DNA from: a phage
Sequence record: PZ445451.1
DNA length: 64,000 bases
Reading direction: 5' to 3' (one strand)
The notes beneath the pieces are model-generated. The model saw only the letters and a list, made by a program, of their open reading frames with translations, was not told the origin of the DNA and did no database searches. Of this stretch, positions 27,213 to 49,890 are shown one piece after another. Positions within the stretch are counted from its first letter, which is position 1, and the number at the start of each line of letters is the position of its first letter. Position numbers and translations under genes: made by a program.

Positions 27213-27929
27213 TTATTTCAGTTTGTAAACAATTACATTTAAACCTTTGTTTACTAGAGTTTCTTCGATCATAAGTTTTACAATATTCCAAGAACCTCCA
27301 GCCAAACCACAACCAAGCATTGGTAAACCTACAATTTTACCGCCTGAAGATACAACATCGTCTCCCATACTATCTAGCGCATTGTAGATAGCTTCATAAT
27401 TCAGGTCACGCTTACCTTCCTCACGACTACTATAACCATATTGTCCATATAAATTATAAATTGTCAAATTGTTTTCTGTATATTTGGTAAACGTACCTAA
27501 TTTTTTATAATCACCACGTTTAGTGGCACAATCTGCTTTAAACGCACCAGGCCACTTGCTTTTAATTTTTGGTGCAATACCACTACCCATAGTGCAAAAA
27601 CAGTTACAGCAGTGTGCTATAGCGTCTATATCGCCTCTCTCGGCTGCTGCTAAAAGATCACCGTATACCTCAACGATACCTGCTGGATAACTTGTTACAA
27701 TTTCATCTTCCCAGTACATTTTCTCTACACCACCGATCAGTGCAAAGTTTTGTGTAATGCGATCATCAATATAGTTAAGACCTGAAACATACACAGCGTA
27801 TTCATCCTGTGCTGTAATACCTTGCACACGAATTCTTAAGACACCATCTTTATCTGTTGCTACACGCCCAAAATCTTTTTCTGTAATATTGGTGATAGGA
27901 TCTCCGAAAGTCATTACTTTATTAGACAT
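27213..27929 (-). CDS. Rossmann-like nucleotide-processing domain protein (macro- or LOG/SLOG-like)
   Basis: DAIAHCCNCFCTMGSGIA and VGLPMLGCGLAGGSW Gly-rich loops resembling macro or LOG motifs; start set at ATG after AAGGGG, overlapping PRTase stop by 8 nt. Confidence 0.45.
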   Translation of the reverse strand: MSNKVMTFGDPITNITEKDFGRVATDKDGVLRIRVQGITAQDEYAVYVSGLNYIDDRITQNFALIGGVEKMYWEDEIVTSYPAGIVEVYGDLLAAAERGDIDAIAHCCNCFCTMGSGIAPKIKSKWPGAFKADCATKRGDYKKLGTFTKYTENNLTIYNLYGQYGYSSREEGKRDLNYEAIYNALDSMGDDVVSSGGKIVGLPMLGCGLAGGSWNIVKLMIEETLVNKGLNVIVYKLK

Positions 27930-28779
27930 AATAATCCCCTTTAACATTAGATTTGTTGATAATGTTGCTTTCAAAAAATTGACGTAGGAAATCAAAGTTC
28001 TCTTTGTATTTTTCAACGTTATTGTAACCTTCTGCAAGGCAACCAAAGAACAGTTGTTCTACATAATACAAAGGAAGTTGTGAAAGTGCAATTTTAAAAT
28101 CAACTTCGCTTTGACTCATTAGATACTTAATAGGACGAACCAAACATTTAGCATCAGTTTCTTGCTTAATCATTTTAATAAAAGCTGCCAGATTGTTGAT
28201 ATAGTTGAAGTTAAGTGCAGCTTCGGTATTGGCTTCTGTACCTTCATACTTTGCAAAGTACAGGAAAAACGTATCGTTTTCAACACCTTCTTTGTCTAAA
28301 ATTTCAATAAGTTTTTCTTCGTGTGTTCCTGTAATATTAACATCATCAATGAAAATCAGAGTTTTATTACCCCAGAAATCACGATTGATAGAGAAAGTGT
28401 CACCATCGATCAAAGCCTTACGATCTTCTTTGCTAAGAAATCCATAATCATTAATGTAGCTCACTTTACGATGAACGATATCCCACTCCACTGCTTTACC
28501 TCCTTTGATAGAGATTAGGTAGTTGAGGTGATCTACAAAATGTTCAGATAACACTGTAGCTGCATTTTTCACATAGTTATATGGAGATGGAATAACAACA
28601 AAACTTTCATTTACCAGTCGTTCTTCATACTTAGAAAAGAAACTTTCAGCCAGAATGCGCCCCATTCTTTTTGCTGCCTGGTTACTGCCAAACTTTAGCT
28701 TGGAATAATCTGCAATGTTAAATTTTGCTTCCTTCAGGTTAGTAAAAGTATTAGCAAAATGTTGAATTTGATTACGCAT
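27922..28779 (-). CDS. Type I phosphoribosyltransferase-domain protein
   Basis: PRPP-binding signature LIFIDDVNITGTHEE. Confidence 0.6.
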   Translation of the reverse strand: MRNQIQHFANTFTNLKEAKFNIADYSKLKFGSNQAAKRMGRILAESFFSKYEERLVNESFVVIPSPYNYVKNAATVLSEHFVDHLNYLISIKGGKAVEWDIVHRKVSYINDYGFLSKEDRKALIDGDTFSINRDFWGNKTLIFIDDVNITGTHEEKLIEILDKEGVENDTFFLYFAKYEGTEANTEAALNFNYINNLAAFIKMIKQETDAKCLVRPIKYLMSQSEVDFKIALSQLPLYYVEQLFFGCLAEGYNNVEKYKENFDFLRQFFESNIINKSNVKGDYYV

Positions 28780-29428
28780 TAATAAGTTCCTCTTTTTTAA
28801 GTTTAGCCAACAAGTCTTCTGGATTAATAATATGACAGAACTTCATCCCTATGTCAACAGCTTTTCCATCATAGATCAAACTATCTCCAACGTGTAAGAT
28901 CTCCTCTGGTGCGAGATCAAACGTTACCATTTCATCAAAAGAGAGTTTAAAAAACCTGGGATCTGGTTTACACAAGCAAAACTCATCAGAAAAATGCATA
29001 AAGTCAAATGGTAATTTTGTCAAGCCAGAATATACAGCTAAGAAACTACCAGGTACAAAATTGGTATTGCTTTTAATACTCAAAGAATAGGTTGAACTTA
29101 GCTCTTCCAACTTCTTGCAAAGTTCAGGGTTTAATGTTGGAGGATGTTTTATAAACATTGCTAAACAGTCTCTTTTTAACCCATCCACCTTATCAAGATC
29201 AATGTTCAAATGAGCAGAAAGTGTTTCCCAAGCATTTCTAGATGTTCCACAAATGCCTTTTTCTGCTTTTAAATCCAAGAGAGTTTTTACCTCTTTATAT
29301 ACGGTAGCTGCTTCTACCTCAGAACAAGAGGCATACTCGGCAATAACCTTGTTGCGTTCTTCTGCATACAAAGGATTAGCAGTAATAAGAGTATTCCATA
29401 CATCAAAAGAAATATGCTTAACAGTCAT
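28772..29428 (-). CDS. HAD-superfamily hydrolase (phosphatase-like)
   Basis: N-terminal ISFDVWNTLI motif I-like block and C-terminal HVGDSLIYDGK motif IV-like block; overlaps PRTase start by 8 nt. Confidence 0.55.
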   Translation of the reverse strand: MTVKHISFDVWNTLITANPLYAEERNKVIAEYASCSEVEAATVYKEVKTLLDLKAEKGICGTSRNAWETLSAHLNIDLDKVDGLKRDCLAMFIKHPPTLNPELCKKLEELSSTYSLSIKSNTNFVPGSFLAVYSGLTKLPFDFMHFSDEFCLCKPDPRFFKLSFDEMVTFDLAPEEILHVGDSLIYDGKAVDIGMKFCHIINPEDLLAKLKKEELINA

Positions 29429-29596: not shown

Positions 29597-29800
29597 TTAG
29601 AATGGTAATCTTTGTATATCACTTATCCCCACACCAAGAAGTCTAGCAATATCCTTATCTAAAAGCAACTCTTTTTGTTCTAAAATGTTAATCAGATCTC
29701 CTAATACTTCTTTAATGTCACGATCATTTTTAGCAACGTGACCACCTGCTGTATCAACTTTATCTTTAAAAACAAAATAATGATCCATAATACCCTCCAT
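29597..29800 (-). CDS. Hypothetical small protein
   Basis: 67 aa ORF directly after terminator hairpin. Confidence 0.4.
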   Translation of the reverse strand: MEGIMDHYFVFKDKVDTAGGHVAKNDRDIKEVLGDLINILEQKELLLDKDIARLLGVGISDIQRLPF

Positions 29801-29807
29801 ATAAATA

Positions 29808-29827
29808 AAGGAGGCTTTCGCCTCCTT
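29808..29827 (-). terminator. Hairpin AAGGAGGC-TTTC-GCCTCCTT after ATPase gene
   Basis: 8 bp stem followed by T-rich run on minus strand. Confidence 0.55.
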
Positions 29828-29834
29828 TTATCAC

Positions 29835-30995
29835 TTAGTAAGAACGACCACCAAACACATACTCTGTGTAGTTTTTACGTTCTTTGTTTTTAATAACAAC
29901 TTCAATGTTGTTACCTTTATCATCGGTGAACATAAAGTGATAACCGTCACCACCCATTGTACGAATGTGTTTTTCATCATACGTTAGCAAGATACGGTCT
30001 ACACCCCAGTAGTAGTCACCTTCTTCATCTTTATCTTCTACGGTAACAATCCCTTCCATTTCAGGAAGATGCTCTTCACCTAGTTTATGGTCTACAGCTA
30101 CAACATAACGATTACCGCTAAACAAACCTTGTGCTGTCATACCGTCAATATCGGTATCTGACGAAACATCTCCTGTACGATCTACACCGTTAACTTTCAG
30201 AAGTTTAACCTCTTTTGCAGCATAGCGGTGTTCAGTAATACTGATACCCATCAATGCAAGTGCATCAGAGAATTTGTCATTAGGGTAACGGTTAAGTTCT
30301 TCTACTAATGACTGAACAATATCAAAGTTCAAATCCACGGAGAGATTATAAAGCGTTTCAAAATCTGGTAAGAAGGCTTTGTTCTCCAGATTTTTAGCCA
30401 GATAATCATCCATAGTAGCTTTAGGTAGTTTCTTATAGCTAAAACTGTAGAAAATACGGCTAGGACGATTACGCAAAAATTCTGATACATAACCATCATT
30501 TTTAGTCAATACAAACAGTTTGTCGTAGCCACCAACACCATCCAGCAGGGTAAGCAAACCATCTTGTGCATCTTTTTCAGCATACAGTTTATCAAATTCA
30601 TCGATCATAATCATCACAGGTTGTGTGATTTTAGACATAAAATTGATAAAGCCTTCACCATTAAAAGCACTACCGATAGAAATAGTAGGAATACCCATTT
30701 CACGAAGAGCAGAAGACAGCATTTTAGCTTGCAAAGTTTTACCGCTACCTTTCGTACCTTCAAGGAGAACACCTGTGTTTTTACCTTTGCGGCTAAGGAA
30801 CGTTTTGATAATACGTTCTGATTTATCATCAGTATCACCGTATGTTACTGAAGGGACTTCCATATCGTTTTTAGGATACAGGAAGAACTCACCACTTTGA
30901 GTAACACCTACACCAAAAGTTCCTGCTGGAATTTCTTCAATATCTGTACCAGATTTCTGACGCAGAAAGATTTGATTGCCGAATACTGTAAACAT
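29835..30995 (-). CDS. P-loop NTPase (AAA-like), paralog of 46733-47860
   Basis: Walker A GTKGSGKT, Walker B IMIDEFDK, LLTLLDG and NRPSRIFY blocks shared with the plus-strand paralog. Confidence 0.6.
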   Translation of the reverse strand: MFTVFGNQIFLRQKSGTDIEEIPAGTFGVGVTQSGEFFLYPKNDMEVPSVTYGDTDDKSERIIKTFLSRKGKNTGVLLEGTKGSGKTLQAKMLSSALREMGIPTISIGSAFNGEGFINFMSKITQPVMIMIDEFDKLYAEKDAQDGLLTLLDGVGGYDKLFVLTKNDGYVSEFLRNRPSRIFYSFSYKKLPKATMDDYLAKNLENKAFLPDFETLYNLSVDLNFDIVQSLVEELNRYPNDKFSDALALMGISITEHRYAAKEVKLLKVNGVDRTGDVSSDTDIDGMTAQGLFSGNRYVVAVDHKLGEEHLPEMEGIVTVEDKDEEGDYYWGVDRILLTYDEKHIRTMGGDGYHFMFTDDKGNNIEVVIKNKERKNYTEYVFGGRSY

Positions 30996-35617: not shown

Positions 35618-38392
35618 TTAGTTTATCAGTTTATTTATGTCTGGTAAAAGATTTATTTCACCTAAGAAATCACCTTCACCTTCCTCTAGCCAACTCTCAT
35701 ATGCTTGTGCATGATTATAGTTACCATCAAAAGAATCTGCAACAAATTTTTCTACAGTTTTTCGAGATGTGCCAGCGCCAAATACACCAAGTTTAATACT
35801 ATTGATCGGTAAAGTGGTGCTTGTTGGTACTTTCTCTGTTGCAACACGGTTGATATCTATAATCTCCTGTACGGTTGTGTTCCATTGTAAGCATTTAACA
35901 CAACGGGTATGCGCTACATACAGTAGGTTTCGCTCTGCCTCTTCCAGTCCTACCCATTCACCAGTTTTTTTATCATAATTGGAAGGAAAATCATTAGCAA
36001 CAATAACCTGATCCCACTCCAAACCTTTAGACTTGTGTGCTGTAGTCAATGTGACTTTTGCTGTAGGAGAATTTCTATGCGTTCTAAGTGTATGTGCTAT
36101 AGTGTTTGCCTTGCCAGAAACTACGATGTTTAACAAGCGTTTAGCATCTGGATCAGCCTCTGCACACTCAACAAATTCATTCCAGTCTGCGTAAGGTAAT
36201 ACAGTTTCATGTTTTACTTTCTCAATATCTCCTCTCCGAAGAGCATTAACACTATCTACCATAGAGATAAAATCCCTGGTATCTACGTTAATAATAATTT
36301 CTTCCCCATCTGCAATACGATCCATTGCCTCCATAAGCAAGGTTAAATTCTTGCGAAAGATGATAGTGTAAGGTTTTGTATAGTCTACAACATCTGATTT
36401 GTAGCTACCTACTACAGTATCAAAGCCTTTACCAACCAAAGGATGACGCAAAGGTTCTTTATCGCTTAAAATCATATTGGCAATGTTTGCCACTTTGGGG
36501 CCAAAACGGAAGCAAGCAGTTAATGGAAGCTCTGCCCCATACTTAGCTGTTTCAATCATCATATTAGAGCTACCTCTAAATTGATAAATGCAGTTGTGGC
36601 TAAGAATTTCATTGCCAAAGAAGTTAGCAGTATCCTCTACTTCAATATCATAATAGATACCCTCACTATCTACAATGTCCACAATCTCTTCTGCCGTTAC
36701 AGTATCACCATCTTTTACCAACACAGACATGCCTTTAAACAAACCCGCTGCCGGAATTAAGTTATATTTGGCACTGTTCACAGAGGACATGCATTCTTTT
36801 AAAGATGCAAACGGAACTATTTCAAGGATCTTTTGTGCAAAACTCAATGCTTCACGATAAGAATTGAAATATTTACGTACACGGTAACGACCTTCCAATT
36901 TAGCAGCACTTACGCTTACACCTGCTTTAATCAGTGAAGAATAGATCGGCATTTCACTTTCTGTCCACTCAAAACTAACTTGTGTTCCTTTACAACCTTG
37001 TGCTCGCAAAGTCACTGTTAGCATTTTTCTTTCATCTACTGCACAATTGATGCTGTGCCAGTGTGGATAAGCAAAATGATAATCTTTATCCTCTAAAAGT
37101 TTAAAACCATTTTGTCCGAATTGTTCAAAGATGTTATTGATCCTTTCTTGATTAATGCCGCGTGAACTTGCTTCAAATACACAAGTAGGAATGCCATATT
37201 GTAAACTGTATGCCATTTCTTTTTCCATAGCAGCTTCACGGTTTTCAACAATATCCAACACCCATAATTTCTGTGCTTTTTCAGAACGTGTACGTTGCCC
37301 CAGTTTAGAAAAACCTTCTTTATCATCGAATTTGTTAGTGATCCCTACTCGGAAACCTAAATCTTTCCTCCACATTAGGTATACCACCATCTGATCATCT
37401 TTCAGAACATAGGATGAAGCCCAAATACGATGGTTATGTGTCATATCTAAAGTTTTACCTGTGGCAGTAATAATATTCCTACCTTTTGTACGTGTAGATA
37501 AAGTCTTATTTGTTACTTTTCTAAATGTAATTTTACCATTAGAATAAGACTCTACCTTATCACCGATTTGTAGGTCTTTCATTGTAACCTGACCATTCTC
37601 GGTATTAAGTACCGTGTTTTCCGACACACATTGGAATTCATCGCCCACTACCACAATTTGTTTTGCAGATTTAGCATTTCGCAGAATAGACAAGAATGCA
37701 GGGTTAACATCCTGGAATTCATCACCAAAAATAATGTCATAACCAAGATCAGCACCTGATAACTCAAACAATTTTACATAGGTGTCATGCGTCATCAAAG
37801 TATCTGTGTTAGGATCAATGCGCTCTCGCCACAATTGTTTTGCATACTTAACTACTTCTGTAATTAGTTTGTGTTCGTTAATACCTTTTCTTTTAATATC
37901 TGCAAGATGTACACCAGGGAAATGTTTACGGCTGATAAAAGGATCATCCGAAAATTCAAACTTACCTACGGTTTGCTTGATCATTAAACCAATCATAGCA
38001 CGAGTTAAAAGTGTTTTCCCTCGTTTATCAATAAGATTATTAATCTTAAATTTCTTTGCTATCTCACTACCTGTACCTGCAACGTTAACATACTGTCCTT
38101 CTGGTCGTGACAGTTTTGCACGTAAACGATGATCCAGGAATTGATAGCAAATGGAATGCAATGTACGGCATTCTACATTTGGTGGCATCTTACGCCGTGC
38201 TTCTTCTGCCATGCTTTTATTGAAAGCTAAGTAAAGAATGCGATCTTCTGTACTGTTAGCCAGCAAATAAAGTGTTGACGTTTTGCCTGATCCAGATTTA
38301 GCTTGGATAGTTAAAAAACGATGGTCTGGAAAAGCCTCCTTAATAGCTGTTTGCTCTTCTGTTGGAGTAAAACTCAACTCTTTCTTAGCCAT
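35618..38392 (-). CDS. UvrD/Rep-family (SF1) DNA helicase interrupted by an intein
   Basis: Walker A AKSGSGKT, motif II IIFGDEFQD, motif III split as VVVGDEFQ / CIYQFRGSS by a 346-residue insert; start set at ATG after AGAGAGG. Confidence 0.85.
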   Translation of the reverse strand: MAKKELSFTPTEEQTAIKEAFPDHRFLTIQAKSGSGKTSTLYLLANSTEDRILYLAFNKSMAEEARRKMPPNVECRTLHSICYQFLDHRLRAKLSRPEGQYVNVAGTGSEIAKKFKINNLIDKRGKTLLTRAMIGLMIKQTVGKFEFSDDPFISRKHFPGVHLADIKRKGINEHKLITEVVKYAKQLWRERIDPNTDTLMTHDTYVKLFELSGADLGYDIIFGDEFQDVNPAFLSILRNAKSAKQIVVVGDEFQCVSENTVLNTENGQVTMKDLQIGDKVESYSNGKITFRKVTNKTLSTRTKGRNIITATGKTLDMTHNHRIWASSYVLKDDQMVVYLMWRKDLGFRVGITNKFDDKEGFSKLGQRTRSEKAQKLWVLDIVENREAAMEKEMAYSLQYGIPTCVFEASSRGINQERINNIFEQFGQNGFKLLEDKDYHFAYPHWHSINCAVDERKMLTVTLRAQGCKGTQVSFEWTESEMPIYSSLIKAGVSVSAAKLEGRYRVRKYFNSYREALSFAQKILEIVPFASLKECMSSVNSAKYNLIPAAGLFKGMSVLVKDGDTVTAEEIVDIVDSEGIYYDIEVEDTANFFGNEILSHNCIYQFRGSSNMMIETAKYGAELPLTACFRFGPKVANIANMILSDKEPLRHPLVGKGFDTVVGSYKSDVVDYTKPYTIIFRKNLTLLMEAMDRIADGEEIIINVDTRDFISMVDSVNALRRGDIEKVKHETVLPYADWNEFVECAEADPDAKRLLNIVVSGKANTIAHTLRTHRNSPTAKVTLTTAHKSKGLEWDQVIVANDFPSNYDKKTGEWVGLEEAERNLLYVAHTRCVKCLQWNTTVQEIIDINRVATEKVPTSTTLPINSIKLGVFGAGTSRKTVEKFVADSFDGNYNHAQAYESWLEEGEGDFLGEINLLPDINKLIN
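36593..37630 (-). mobile_element. Intein in helicase motif III
   Basis: Begins CVSENTVLN, block B THNH, ends YYDIEVEDTANFFGNEILSHN followed by Cys; excision rebuilds canonical GDxxQ-IYxFRG. Confidence 0.65.
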
Positions 38393-46094: not shown

Positions 46095-46268
46095 ATGAGT
46101 TTCTTTGTTACAGTATTTATGGCTATCTGGATTGTAGTCTCACTCGTTCTTTTCCTGGTGGGTTGTCTGGAAGAGATTAAGAAAGCGGTTATTTGCGGTT
46201 TCTTTGGCTTTATTATCTCTCCTGCCTGGATGTGGTTCTTCATTATGATTGGTTTCCTTAAAAGGTAA
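46095..46268 (+). CDS. Small membrane protein (57 aa), not in ORF track
   Basis: Two hydrophobic helices. Confidence 0.4.
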   Translation: MSFFVTVFMAIWIVVSLVLFLVGCLEEIKKAVICGFFGFIISPAWMWFFIMIGFLKR

Positions 46269-46282
46269 GTGAGGAATAAAGA

Positions 46283-46720
46283 ATGAGTAAAACAAACGCA
46301 ATCGCAGATAAAGCAACGGATGTACTTCTGAACATGGTTAACGTCACTATTCAAACAATGAGTGATGTTGTGGAGTTTGGAAAACAACAAATTCCAGAAG
46401 TAATCCATCAATTATTAGTGTGGAAAGCAGTATCCGCAGGTTTATGGCAACTTTTTAGTATTTGCTTTATGCTTATTACTTTTATTGCTGTGCGGAACAT
46501 CGTAAAAGCAATTAAAGATAAAGAATGCCTGTGGTCACGAGATCGTTATGGTGAAGTATCTGCTTTACCTATTGTTGGTCTTGTTGTCTGTGCTTTCTTT
46601 TTCTTTTTAGGGTTTGTTATTTTCTTTTCGAATTTTGATTGGCTAAAAATCATTATTGCACCAAAAGTGTATCTGATTGAATTTGCTGCTGATTTAATTC
46701 GTTCATCTCAACAAAGATAA
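46283..46720 (+). CDS. Membrane protein, two transmembrane segments
   Basis: 145 aa with LWQLFSICFMLITFIAV and IVGLVVCAFFFFLGFVIFF hydrophobic segments. Confidence 0.5.
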   Translation: MSKTNAIADKATDVLLNMVNVTIQTMSDVVEFGKQQIPEVIHQLLVWKAVSAGLWQLFSICFMLITFIAVRNIVKAIKDKECLWSRDRYGEVSALPIVGLVVCAFFFFLGFVIFFSNFDWLKIIIAPKVYLIEFAADLIRSSQQR

Positions 46721-46732
46721 AAGGAGTTTAAA

Positions 46733-47860
46733 ATGAAATACACGATTTATGGTGATATTGTAAGTGTAAATAAAGATATGGGCGTGGAATCTAACTATCT
46801 TCCACCTGGATTCTATACTGTTAGTCGTGATCCCCTTGGCAATTATTTTTTAAGCCGTGGTAATCTGACAGGTGTACCGGATGTTCTGTATGGTGAAACA
46901 GAAAAACGAGCAAATCACGTTATTCGTACATTCCATCGCCGGAGTGCACAAGGTAAAAATACAGGCTTGCTTCTGACAGGAACTAAGGGCAGTGGTAAAA
47001 CTATGTTAGCCAAACTCATTAGTCGTGACCTTGTAGAAGAAGGTATTCCAACTATTATGGTTACTCAAGCCTACAGTGATGCTAATTTCATTGAACTTAT
47101 TAGCAAGATCACAGACAAAGCAGTCATTATTTTTGACGAGTTTGATAAAGTATATGAGAAGAAACAAGATCAAGAAGCACTTCTCACTTTATTAGATGGT
47201 ACTGGCAGTGGTAATAAACTGTTTATTCTGACTAAAAACAGTGGTTTTATCTCTGAATTCTTTTTAAATCGTCCTAGTCGTGTGTTTTATAATTTTAATT
47301 ATGATAAAATCTCACTAGAAACTATGATTGACTATTTAGATAAAAACCTGGATAACAAAGCACACTTTGATAATTTCCAAAGACTTTGGGATGTAAGTTT
47401 AGAGTTGTCCTTTGATGTGATCCAAGGTATAGTAGAAGAACTTAATTTCTATCCTGATTTATCCTTTAAAGAATGCATCTCTATGATGGGCGTTTCTTTG
47501 GGTGGTGGTAATAAATGGGATATCAGCAGCGTTGTTATTAATGGAAAACTTCAGAAAGTTAGCTGGGTATCTAGTTGGCATAACTTCACACCTGCAATCT
47601 TTTTAGGTGGTTCGTGCACACTAGACGTGTACTTGTCATCTCCAAGTGATGCAGACTCTAAAGAAGCCCTTGCTAATAGCTCTTACGTGGTTTTTGATGA
47701 TGAAGGCGATGCTCGAATTCCATTGAATGCGACAAAAATGAAAGCAGATCTTATTACAGGCGGTAAAATAGTTGTGTTTAGTGATGATCCAGAAGATTCT
47801 TTCCGTATTGTTCTGGAACCAACTATCACCAATGGTGCAACTTTGGCAAGTGTGTTTTAA
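46733..47860 (+). CDS. P-loop NTPase (AAA-like), paralog of 29835-30995
   Basis: Walker A GTKGSGKT, Walker B IIFDEFDK, LLTLLDG and NRPSRVFY blocks shared with the minus-strand paralog. Confidence 0.6.
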   Translation: MKYTIYGDIVSVNKDMGVESNYLPPGFYTVSRDPLGNYFLSRGNLTGVPDVLYGETEKRANHVIRTFHRRSAQGKNTGLLLTGTKGSGKTMLAKLISRDLVEEGIPTIMVTQAYSDANFIELISKITDKAVIIFDEFDKVYEKKQDQEALLTLLDGTGSGNKLFILTKNSGFISEFFLNRPSRVFYNFNYDKISLETMIDYLDKNLDNKAHFDNFQRLWDVSLELSFDVIQGIVEELNFYPDLSFKECISMMGVSLGGGNKWDISSVVINGKLQKVSWVSSWHNFTPAIFLGGSCTLDVYLSSPSDADSKEALANSSYVVFDDEGDARIPLNATKMKADLITGGKIVVFSDDPEDSFRIVLEPTITNGATLASVF

Positions 47861-47875
47861 GTAAGCCAGCAAATA

Positions 47876-47900
47876 AAAACCCGCTTCGGCGGGTTTTCTT
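47876..47900 (+). terminator. Rho-independent terminator AAAACCCGC-TTCG-GCGGGTTTT
   Basis: 9 bp stem with TTCG loop followed by T run. Confidence 0.6.
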
Positions 47901-47934: not shown

Positions 47935-49338
47935 ATGACAGCACCAAAATCATGGGAACAATATAAAGAAGAATTAACACCCCTTGCTAAAAATCACAAT
48001 ATTCAAATCCTGGGTTATGTTGGGGAATGGAAAGGGAGCAAGACTAAACTTAAACTATCTTGCCCTGATCATGGAGAGTGGGAAAGTACCACAATCGCTA
48101 AATTTAAAACTAAAGGCAGTAAATGTTGCCCCGATTGCAATGGTCGTAGAAAAGTAACAGAAGAAAAGGAATGTATTTCCCTTGTTGATATTGCTAAAGA
48201 AAGAGGGTTTACTTTTATAGGTCTTGCCGAGGAGTGGCGAGGTGTGCGAACAAAAATTCGCATAGTTTGCCCTAAACATGGAGAGTGGAACACCACGCAC
48301 ATTATTGATTTTAGGAATGGACGTGGTTGTCCTATCTGTTCTGGTAAGAAGCCGTTAACATGGGAAACAGAATTACCGATCTTGGCAGAGATAGCACAGA
48401 AGAAGGGGTATCAGGTGTTAGGGTACGTTGGAAAATGGAAAGGGTGTTACACAAAACTTGATTTGTTGTGTCATTGTGGGAACAGATGGGATACTACAAG
48501 TATTAACAGTTTTAAAAATGGCAATGGTTGTCCTTTATGTAGGAGGGAGAATATAAGGAAGGCAAAAACAATATCCGACGATCAACATATTGCAGATTTC
48601 TTTTCTACAGGGAAATTTAAGGAAGGCACTATCTTCACCAATACAGGGAAACGTAGTTGTAGTAAATCAGGAGATATTATCTGGATGATCGAGTGTCCTG
48701 TTTGCTCCCATGATGAATATGTTCAAGCAGGTGTTTGCGATGGTAAATTTTACTCTAGAGGAAGTGATCTTAAACAAGGAAGTATCCCTTGCCGCTGTGC
48801 AACTAGCTATCATTATACAGAAAATCAGATTACCTACAAAGTGAGAAAGGAAATAGAAAAGAAAGGGTATGTCTGGGTAGATTGGATTACCAAACCATCT
48901 TCTATAGGTAAGTTTAAATATCTTTGTCTTGTACATGGGGAGCAGATAGGGAGTGCTCGTAACTTATTAACTCAAGGGTGTGGGTGTTCACAGTGTGCTG
49001 GTCATAGTCAACAGCAATTATATATTAATATTGTTAAAGATAATGATATTACAGTTGCTCTTAAGTTTGGCATAGCTAAAGATAGTGACAGGCGATTAAA
49101 CAGTCAAAATAGCCGTAATCTGTTTTTTATGGAGCGTATTTGTTTATATGATTTTAGTACAGTGAAACAGTGTAAGGCTGCTGAAAGAGCTATAAAGAAA
49201 AAATTAAAAACTGGTATCTTAACAGCAAGAGAGTTGAAAGATGGTTATACAGAAACAGTAAGTGTTTCTGATTTGGAAAATCTTCAAAAAATTATTACAC
49301 AATATGGTGGCAAATTAGTATACAGTAAGGAGATGTAA
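47935..49338 (+). CDS. Tandem zinc-ribbon repeat protein with C-terminal T5orf172/GIY-YIG-like domain
   Basis: At least four repeats of CPxHGEW...F(K/R)xGxGCPxC; C-terminus QQQLYINIVKDNDITVALKFGIAKDSDRRLNSQNSRNL resembles T5orf172-type domain. Confidence 0.45.
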   Translation: MTAPKSWEQYKEELTPLAKNHNIQILGYVGEWKGSKTKLKLSCPDHGEWESTTIAKFKTKGSKCCPDCNGRRKVTEEKECISLVDIAKERGFTFIGLAEEWRGVRTKIRIVCPKHGEWNTTHIIDFRNGRGCPICSGKKPLTWETELPILAEIAQKKGYQVLGYVGKWKGCYTKLDLLCHCGNRWDTTSINSFKNGNGCPLCRRENIRKAKTISDDQHIADFFSTGKFKEGTIFTNTGKRSCSKSGDIIWMIECPVCSHDEYVQAGVCDGKFYSRGSDLKQGSIPCRCATSYHYTENQITYKVRKEIEKKGYVWVDWITKPSSIGKFKYLCLVHGEQIGSARNLLTQGCGCSQCAGHSQQQLYINIVKDNDITVALKFGIAKDSDRRLNSQNSRNLFFMERICLYDFSTVKQCKAAERAIKKKLKTGILTARELKDGYTETVSVSDLENLQKIITQYGGKLVYSKEM

Positions 49339-49890
49339 ATGCGGATTACTGATAAGTATGTGTTCTTCTTTTCAGCAAAAGATGAATTTAGCAACTGGTA
49401 TCTATCATCTTTTATTGAACCTTTAGCACCCAAGTATAATAATTCTATTACAAGTTCTGTTGAATTTACTTGTGTGGAACAATATATGATGTGGAGAAAA
49501 GCATGTTTGTTTTATGATTACAGTATTGCATCTTCTATTTTAACCGGAGATCTAAGATATACAGGAGAAAAAGAACAAGCATATTATAAGCGACTAGGCA
49601 GATTAGTTAAAGATTATGATGAAGATACCTGGACTTCTTTACGGGAGAAGATTGTCAAACGTGGTTTGTATCTTAAATACACACAAAATGAAGATCTCAA
49701 AAATAAACTTATAGCCTACGCAGATAAGGAGTTCGTAGAGGCAAGCCCCTATGATTCTATTTATGGTATCAAAATGGGGATGTGGGATCGTGATGTGGAA
49801 AATAAGGACTGTTGGAAAGGACAAAATCTTTTAGGAAAATGGCATACAGACCTTGCTGTTTATCTAAAAACACAATCTGATATTTCCTGA
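49339..49890 (+). CDS. NADAR (YbiA-like) domain protein
   Basis: FFFSAKDEFSNWY, CVEQYMMWRKACLF and DSIYGIK...GQNLLGKWHTDL align with the conserved YbiA blocks. Confidence 0.6.
   Translation: MRITDKYVFFFSAKDEFSNWYLSSFIEPLAPKYNNSITSSVEFTCVEQYMMWRKACLFYDYSIASSILTGDLRYTGEKEQAYYKRLGRLVKDYDEDTWTSLREKIVKRGLYLKYTQNEDLKNKLIAYADKEFVEASPYDSIYGIKMGMWDRDVENKDCWKGQNLLGKWHTDLAVYLKTQSDIS

Follow-up and report, generated by a model that had tools for sequence, protein, structure and literature searches.

A retained pair of paralogous AAA ATPases with fast-evolving C-terminal domains in Escherichia phage PaulScherrer (Bas60)

Results

Two paralogous ATPase genes on opposite strands of the Bas60 genome

The stretch of phage DNA analyzed here (record PZ445451.1; 64,000 nucleotides (nt), hereafter the window) matches, at 100% identity, Escherichia phage PaulScherrer (Bas60, MZ501100.1), a Justusliebigvirus of the subfamily Stephanstirmvirinae; a window position equals the MZ501100.1 position minus 32,675. 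The window encodes two related ATPases, referred to below as copy A and copy B. In the list of open reading frames (ORFs), copy A (bas60_0109; 46733..47860, plus strand) has 375 amino acids (aa); it is a stand-alone AAA ATPase of the family PHROG 2376, and its 386-aa paralog, copy B (bas60_0075; 29835..30995, minus strand), lies on the opposite strand with 15.7 kb between the two genes. GenBank labels copy A 'FtsH-like protease', with 'ATPase or Zn metalloprotease' in related records, and copy B 'hypothetical protein'.

A preliminary description of this DNA had interpreted the two ORFs, both located exactly as it gave them, as paralogous P-loop ATPases on opposite strands about 16 kb apart, and had proposed a pairwise alignment to distinguish paralogy from similarity limited to motifs. 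BLASTP aligned residues 3-256 of copy A with residues 2-253 of copy B at 47% identity (119/254 identities, 70% positives, E = 2e-81). The match starts in the N-terminal β domain, runs on through the AAA core and includes the lid, and so extends well past the P-loop motifs: the two genes are true paralogs, and similarity limited to motifs is refuted; the C-terminal ~120 aa gave no significant alignment in this comparison. GTKGSGKT, LLTLLDG and NRPSR(V/I)FY are present in both proteins as had been quoted, but the Walker B quotation was slightly off: the residue preceding DEFDK is F in copy A (VIIFDEFDK) and I in copy B (MIMIDEFDK), and MIDEFDK occurs only in copy B. All four motifs are generic to classic AAA proteins.

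Both proteins carry an intact AAA core of classic type

Copy A matched the PHROG 2376 'ATPase' profile with E = 6.6e-108 (residues 1-367 on profile positions 1-357 of 363) and copy B with E = 5.8e-104 (residues 1-376 on positions 2-359). When the whole proteins were compared with Pfam, the AAA core alone was recognized (PF00004; 38.9 bits for copy A and 29.4 bits for copy B, gathering cutoff 21.2). AlphaFold2 (AF2) models of both proteins were confident (pLDDT 91 for copy A and 88.8 for copy B) and identical in layout: a five-stranded N-terminal β domain (residues 1-45), a linker helix, a minimal α/β AAA core, a four-helix lid and a β-rich C-terminal domain. In copy A, the small N-terminal domain (aa 1-50; 46733..46882, plus strand) is modeled with five strands and contains the conserved residues G7, P24 and L40, the lid spans aa 195-252 (47315..47488, plus), and the C-terminal domain occupies aa 257-375 (47501..47857, plus; pLDDT mostly 86-97). 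The corresponding C-terminal domain of copy B, delimited by the AF2 model, alignments and profile comparison, covers aa 254-386 (29838..30236, minus). Neither β domain gained a fold assignment, as the fold searches were dominated by the AAA module; Pfam returned nothing usable for the isolated N- or C-terminal domains, and searching the PDB with a profile of the N-terminal domain yielded at best a non-significant SH3 hint (E = 0.17).

Invariance was assessed in a family alignment of 113 sequences, using copy A numbering, and motif positions were checked in the translations. The Walker A motif GTKGSGKT (46979..47002, plus, in copy A; 30735..30758, minus, in copy B) contains the invariant residues G83, G86, G88 and K89, and the Walker B motif (VIIFDE, 47123..47140, plus; MIMIDE, 30597..30614, minus) the invariant D135 and E136. 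Sensor-1 N169 is also invariant, as are both arginines of the NRPxR (RPxR) motif in the second region of homology (NRPSR with R180 and R183, 47267..47281, plus, in copy A; R177 and R180, 30456..30470, minus, in copy B). Further invariant positions are K139, Q147, L151, D155 and G156 (LLTLLDG helix). The lid contributes invariant F227, D228 and N238 and no invariant arginine, so that the family has no invariant sensor-2 arginine. By translation check and alignment, the catalytic residues are intact in both copies.

The pore-loop-1 position, located in the loop between β2 and α2, is aromatic in 104/122 family sequences (Y114 of QAYSD in copy A, 47066..47080, plus; F111 of SAFNG in copy B, 30657..30671, minus). 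After the aromatic residue come a small residue and a G or D (AYSD in copy A, AFNG in copy B). The QAYSD region aligns with the MWFG region of p97 D2, and the loop is shorter than that of p97.

A search of the PDB with the family profile returned p97/Cdc48, NVL, Rix7, AFG2 and NSF chains as the best matches (E = 3e-13), with the RPGR and LLT-DG motifs of classic AAA proteins lining up with the family motifs; NRPSR falls on RPGR of p97. All of the best 60 matches were classic AAA proteins, and no RFC clamp-loader, DnaC or DnaA chain was among them. NCBIfam and PADLOC scans yielded sub-threshold P-loop matches only. The AF2 cores lack clade-specific inserts: the sequence signatures are those of classic AAA proteins, and the fold, as modeled, is a stripped-down AAA+ core.

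The protease annotation of copy A finds no counterpart in these data. Pfam matches of copies A and B included no peptidase family (M41 zinc-peptidase), the HExxH motif occurs in neither protein, and no membrane anchor is apparent, with a maximal 19-residue Kyte-Doolittle hydropathy of about 1.0 in both. Because protease domain, HExxH motif and membrane anchor are all missing, the 'FtsH-like protease' and Zn metalloprotease labels are unsupported; 'AAA ATPase, function unknown' would describe these GenBank entries better.

The C-terminal domains are homologous and evolve fastest

Over the last 120-135 aa, copies A and B share 12% identity in the family alignment. Nevertheless, their C-terminal domains agree in the succession of predicted strands and helices in the AF2 models, and profile-profile comparison aligned them end to end (E = 0.004). 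A third lineage, C, connects them further, with E = 8e-7 for A-C and E = 1e-8 for B-C. The common order of secondary-structure elements and the links through the intermediate profile indicate that the two regions derive from one ancestral domain that has diverged strongly. The preliminary description had been right in calling the C-terminal domains divergent, but its 'different specificity domains' were dropped after the profile comparison in favor of a single, fast-evolving homologous domain.

The same gradient is seen among orthologs. Close copy-A orthologs are 71-84% identical in the N-terminal part and 34-62% in the C-terminal part, and copy-B orthologs 82-87% and 41-51%, respectively. Relative to the Klebsiella-phage orthologs, identity is 81% (N) and 59% (C) for copy A and 90% (N) and 48% (C) for copy B. 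By these comparisons the C-terminal domain is the fastest-evolving part of the proteins.

A widespread, mostly single-copy family, retained as a pair in Justusliebigvirus

A profile search recovered 3,334 clusters (50% identity) at E ≤ 1e-30, a lower bound for the PHROG 2376-type family; nearly all members are stand-alone proteins of 350-430 aa. Large phages infecting Gram-negative or Gram-positive bacteria carry the family, as do mobile elements. By tblastn, the family was found in 380 phage records, including Stephanstirmvirinae, Herelleviridae-type phages of Enterococcus, Bacillus and Lactobacillus, 7-11-like phages, jumbo phages of Erwinia, Yersinia and Agrobacterium, lactococcal 949-type phages, staphylococcal siphoviruses and crAss-like phages. 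PHROG 2376 itself is exemplified by phAPEC8 gp014, AEK82040 of Salmonella phage 7-11, Bcp1_221 of a Bacillus phage and orf101 of Lactococcus phage phiL47. Structural matches to BFVD models of Erwinia, Salmonella, Agrobacterium, Proteus and Lactobacillus phage proteins ran along the full length (380-400 columns). The BFVD models have the same three-part architecture as copies A and B. Family members likewise lie among early or accessory genes, and nothing sets the Bas60 proteins apart at family level. The difference is in copy number: most genomes with the family carry one copy, while tblastn gave two matches per Justusliebigvirus genome.

Among the best 150 representatives, no informative domain fusion was found, only an intein and doubtful N-terminal extensions. 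The intein, of LAGLIDADG/Hom_end type, resides in a 727-aa family member (P0209) exactly between the K and T of Walker A (GSGK|...HN|T), a typical insertion site in strongly conserved ATPases.

In all Stephanstirmvirinae lineages examined, copy A keeps its place in the genome. Phapecoctavirus and Citrobacter phage Tr1 contain the A type alone, again in this place, where it closes a short run of small rightward genes. Klebsiella phage phi1_175008 carries orthologs of both copy A (74%) and copy B (75%), with order and orientation kept. In neighbor-joining trees built on the conserved 254 residues (bootstrap n = 100), copies A and B formed a clade (95/100) with the family member P0030 and the C type, a single-copy lineage from a 154-kb metagenomic phage, and copy B grouped with the C type (80/100). 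This grouping implies that the A/B split is old; judging from the trees, either the gene would have duplicated, with losses afterwards, or copy B would have been recaptured from a related phage.

Codon changes were counted against phage alia (98.4% nucleotide identity). Copy A differs by 18 synonymous and 0 non-synonymous changes and copy B by 18 and 1 (36 and 1 in sum), which shows strong purifying selection on both copies. The C-terminal domains taken separately show 6 synonymous changes and 1 non-synonymous change.

Relatives of the ATPases in bacterial assemblies come mostly from Clostridia. On four Clostridia contigs (L054, L044, L038 and L052), the relative directly follows a pair of MoxR-type AAA_5 and VWA/CobT-like genes or a PcfJ-like protein, and an orphan DNA methylase lies nearby; antirepressor genes also neighbor bacterial relatives. 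From this gene content, the context of the bacterial relatives looks like that of mobile elements.

Hairpins and neighboring genes

Each ATPase gene is followed by a terminator-like hairpin. The one after copy A (47876..47897, plus) has a 9-bp stem, a UUCG loop and a U-run (-15.9 kcal/mol, z = -3.55), and the one after copy B (29807..29828, minus) a GAAA loop (-17.0 kcal/mol, z = -4.76). Both genes had been described as ending their operons in front of strong terminators. The stable hairpins are there, but genes in the same direction follow: bas60_0074 to bas60_0065 start 7 nt past the T-run of the copy B hairpin, and co-directional genes resume 74 nt downstream of copy A. For copy B the short spacing makes an operon end doubtful, and its hairpin may attenuate transcription, with no obvious end of the transcription unit. 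Within 29785-29830 (minus), the 5' arm of this hairpin contains AAGGAGG, and the gene that follows copy B offers two ATG codons, one at 29800 and another, behind GGAGGG, at 29788. As alia annotates a shorter coding sequence (192 nt versus 204 nt), the start annotated in PaulScherrer is probably 12 nt too early.

Two small proteins are encoded upstream of copy A (46095-46268, 57 aa, and 46283-46720, 145 aa, both plus), ending 12 nt before its start. Judged by eye, each appears to have two membrane-spanning segments. They are kept in Citrobacter phage Tr1 (39% and 43% identity), and phAPEC8 has other small membrane or secreted proteins in their place. No partner gene is conserved across phage families, the upstream pair being common only to Tr1, or across 20 bacterial loci. 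Directly past the copy A hairpin lies a gene (47935-49338, plus) for a 467-aa protein that combines four zinc-ribbon-like CapR homology repeats, arranged in tandem, with a T5orf172 domain, which by its domains looks like a homing-endonuclease gene. The next gene, bas60_0111 (49339-49890, plus), two genes downstream of copy A, encodes a NADAR domain (Pfam E = 3.5e-36). NADAR^Bas60 has been tested as an anti-DarTG1 ADP-ribosylglycohydrolase (PMC11257639), and the cloning primer given there matches the start of bas60_0111, which identifies it as the protein tested.

Copy B directly follows nrdD-nrdG and lies near a UvrD/Rep-family helicase gene (~35618-38392, minus). In PaulScherrer this helicase has an annotated intein (~36590-37630); the alia ortholog is intein-free (1,737 nt). 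Downstream of copy B (27922-29428, minus, and on toward lower coordinates) are genes for a HAD-like hydrolase, a ComF-like PRTase_3 protein and an annotated macrodomain protein, a gene cluster of putative ADP-ribose/NAD type by its domains. Scanning the window for Rfam families and tRNAs found nothing. In all phages inspected, family members are found among small early-type, nucleotide-metabolism or replication genes; the replication module of crAss-like phage cr52_1 contains a short homolog flanked by the genes for a primase and a Cas4-like exonuclease.

Discussion

A likely pair of specialized ring remodelers

Copies A and B are already catalogued, as PHROG 2376 'ATPase', and what they add is limited to the question of function and to the retained pair. 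By sequence, the two ORFs are real paralogous genes, and functional ones. We consider it fairly probable that they encode two sub-functionalized AAA ring remodelers of classic type, functional paralogs within PHROG 2376. As in other classic-type AAA proteins, copies A and B would assemble into rings in a nucleotide-dependent manner, and the invariant arginines would complete the ATP site of the neighboring subunit. The aromatic residue of the β2-α2 loop would face the central channel, and ATP hydrolysis would serve to pull, unfold, disassemble or translocate a substrate, presumably a protein, at or through this channel. The terminal β domains would select the substrate or partner, a role that is presumptive for the C-terminal domain. 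Since the duplication is old and both copies are under purifying selection, sub-functionalization through the C-terminal domains is the most likely outcome: the paralogs would serve different substrates or partners or, with lower probability, act as subunits of one mixed ring. Both genes are most likely expressed together with early and nucleotide-metabolism genes, a timing suggested by their positions.

Best sequence-profile and fold matches fall in the classic clade (p97/Cdc48, NVL/Rix7, AFG2, NSF, the AAA module of FtsH, Rpt/Mpa), and the Pfam, PDB profile and fold results together support the remodeling role that the preliminary description had raised. Walker A and B, sensor-1 Asn, the RPxR arginines and the LLTxxDG helix are common to both groups, and the presumed channel loop of the family carries a mostly aromatic residue. 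In contrast to these unfoldases, copies A and B make do with one AAA module, which measures only ~180 residues, has shorter pore-loop regions and, in the models, contains no β2-α2 helix, and they add an unrelated small N-terminal β domain and a unique C-terminal β domain. They differ from FtsH, further, in having neither the protease domain with its HExxH motif nor the membrane anchor. In duplicated AAA subunits that form mixed or specialized rings, such as Pex1/Pex6, Yta10/Yta12 and Rpt1-6, catalytic and interface residues are kept while accessory domains diverge. In Bas60, by contrast, some 16 kb separate the two genes, which lie on opposite strands, and copy A suffices in related genera.

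Several observations count against a ring remodeler. In the classification of Erzberger and Berger, a short α-helix between β2 and α2 is reportedly the structural hallmark of the classic clade. This helix is absent from both AF2 models, which instead contain a 6-residue loop (between E107-110 and H117-125 in copy A, and between E104-107 and H114-121 in copy B). Both pore-loop regions are also shorter than in p97, so that, with the helix missing, substrate threading is not assured. There are, moreover, weak PHROG and NCBIfam matches to clamp loaders, DnaC and Hda. Finally, our literature search found no experiment on any family member and no paper characterizing copies A and B or PHROG 2376. 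Ksap2 is Bas60_220, Bas60 showed no evolution in the Aionostat study and served merely as a test phage in the Acb5 paper, and the HIDEN-SEQ study covers Bas54, whose subfamily had no visible matches in our tblastn survey.

Alternative roles

The matches to replication proteins could instead indicate a replication accessory ATPase, i.e. a DnaC-like helicase loader or a clamp-loader-like or initiator-like protein acting on DNA or replisome proteins. Weak hidden Markov model (HMM) matches to the clamp loader phrog_168 (E = 1e-8), to DnaC-like phrog_50/3277 (E = 1e-6), to Hda and to IstB point in this direction, as do the labels 'DNA replication protein' or 'DnaC' that databases give to some homologs, the place of the cr52_1 homolog in a replication module, and the position of copy B adjoining NrdD/NrdG with the UvrD helicase near. 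A minimal AAA+ core free of clade-specific inserts is likewise common to copies A and B, the clamp loader (RFC/gp44) and DnaC/IstB. However, the HMM scores are far under the curated cutoffs (Hda, 29.8 versus 194.8; IstB, 19.9 versus 200), and the family has RPxR with two invariant arginines instead of the SRC motif, together with a lid that has no invariant sensor-2 arginine. The models contain no initiator-specific helical insert, and a β-rich C-terminus takes the place of the helical collar. The uniformly classic AAA character of the best PDB profile matches also argues against this role, as does the fact that small early genes, not replication modules, surround most phage homologs. We therefore regard a replication function as unlikely.

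A special case of remodeling is counter-defense or host takeover, in which the ring would unfold or dismantle a housekeeping protein or an immune complex of the host, with the C-terminal domain tracking a variable target. Divergence is indeed about two- to threefold faster in the C-terminal domain than elsewhere, both copies are situated in early or accessory regions, the anti-DarTG1 NADAR^Bas60 gene lies two genes downstream of copy A, and copy B is followed by macrodomain, PRTase and HAD genes. Bacterial homologs in mobile-element contexts (orphan methylase, PcfJ-like, MoxR/VWA) and a report of the MoxR ATPase of phage Bas54 as an anti-defense gene fit as well. Yet the gene-neighborhood argument amounts to proximity, with a strong hairpin between copy A and the NADAR gene, and no similarity to known defense or anti-defense families was found. 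Comparison within the genus shows purifying selection even on the C-terminal domains. The whole subfamily has copy A as a syntenic core gene, and the family spans phages from Enterobacteria to Firmicutes, unusual for host-specific counter-defense genes. The conserved position in Stephanstirmvirinae and the very different hosts make copy A look like a gene with a core function rather than an accessory counter-defense gene. The anti-defense role suggested in the preliminary description, for which proximity to the NADAR gene is the only link, thus did not find support, and we give it a low probability.

In a bolder version, which we advance only tentatively and would not expect to hold, the family comprises widespread phage unfoldases whose hypervariable C-terminal β domain recruits particular host proteins, either immune complexes or housekeeping factors, for ATP-driven dismantling early in infection, and Bas60 runs two such motors against different targets. 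If true, these would be enzymatic, energy-consuming takeover or counter-defense devices of an undescribed kind.

Still less probable is a Bcs1-like translocase or assembly chaperone near the membrane that moves or assembles folded proteins. Bcs1, the mitochondrial translocase of folded Rieske protein, and YjoB of B. subtilis are the top-ranking structural neighbors of copies A and B and share with them a single AAA module and a β-rich N-terminal region; the two small proteins with apparent double membrane spans that precede copy A, and that are kept in Tr1, would suit such a role. 'BCS1 orthologues' of jumbo phages have also been proposed as assembly chaperones (Iyer et al. 2021, PMC7824862), but we could not link these BCS1-like AAA proteins to PHROG 2376. 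In contrast to Bcs1, copies A and B contain no transmembrane segment (maximal hydropathy 1.0) and no BCS1_N domain, and the fold match does not reach beyond ~250 columns centered on the AAA module. Its score margin over other classic AAA proteins is negligible, p97-type domains rather than Bcs1 are the best matches by sequence, and copy B and most homologs have no membrane-protein neighbors.

That the similarity merely reflects generic P-loop motifs, as the generic nature of the four quoted motifs might suggest, or that one copy is a decaying pseudogene, deserves practically no credence, being ruled out by an A-B alignment that includes the non-catalytic N-terminal and lid regions, by intact catalytic residues and codon changes indicative of strong purifying selection in both copies, and by the retention of both as Klebsiella-phage orthologs in a distant genus.

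Significance for phage biology

The family is present in many big virulent phages, among them BASEL model phages, crAss-like gut phages and phages considered for therapy against E. coli, Klebsiella, Enterococcus and Staphylococcus. Bas60 with its two retained paralogs and Phapecoctavirus with one offer a natural comparison. Finding the substrate of the presumed ring would reveal a common ATP-driven step of infection.

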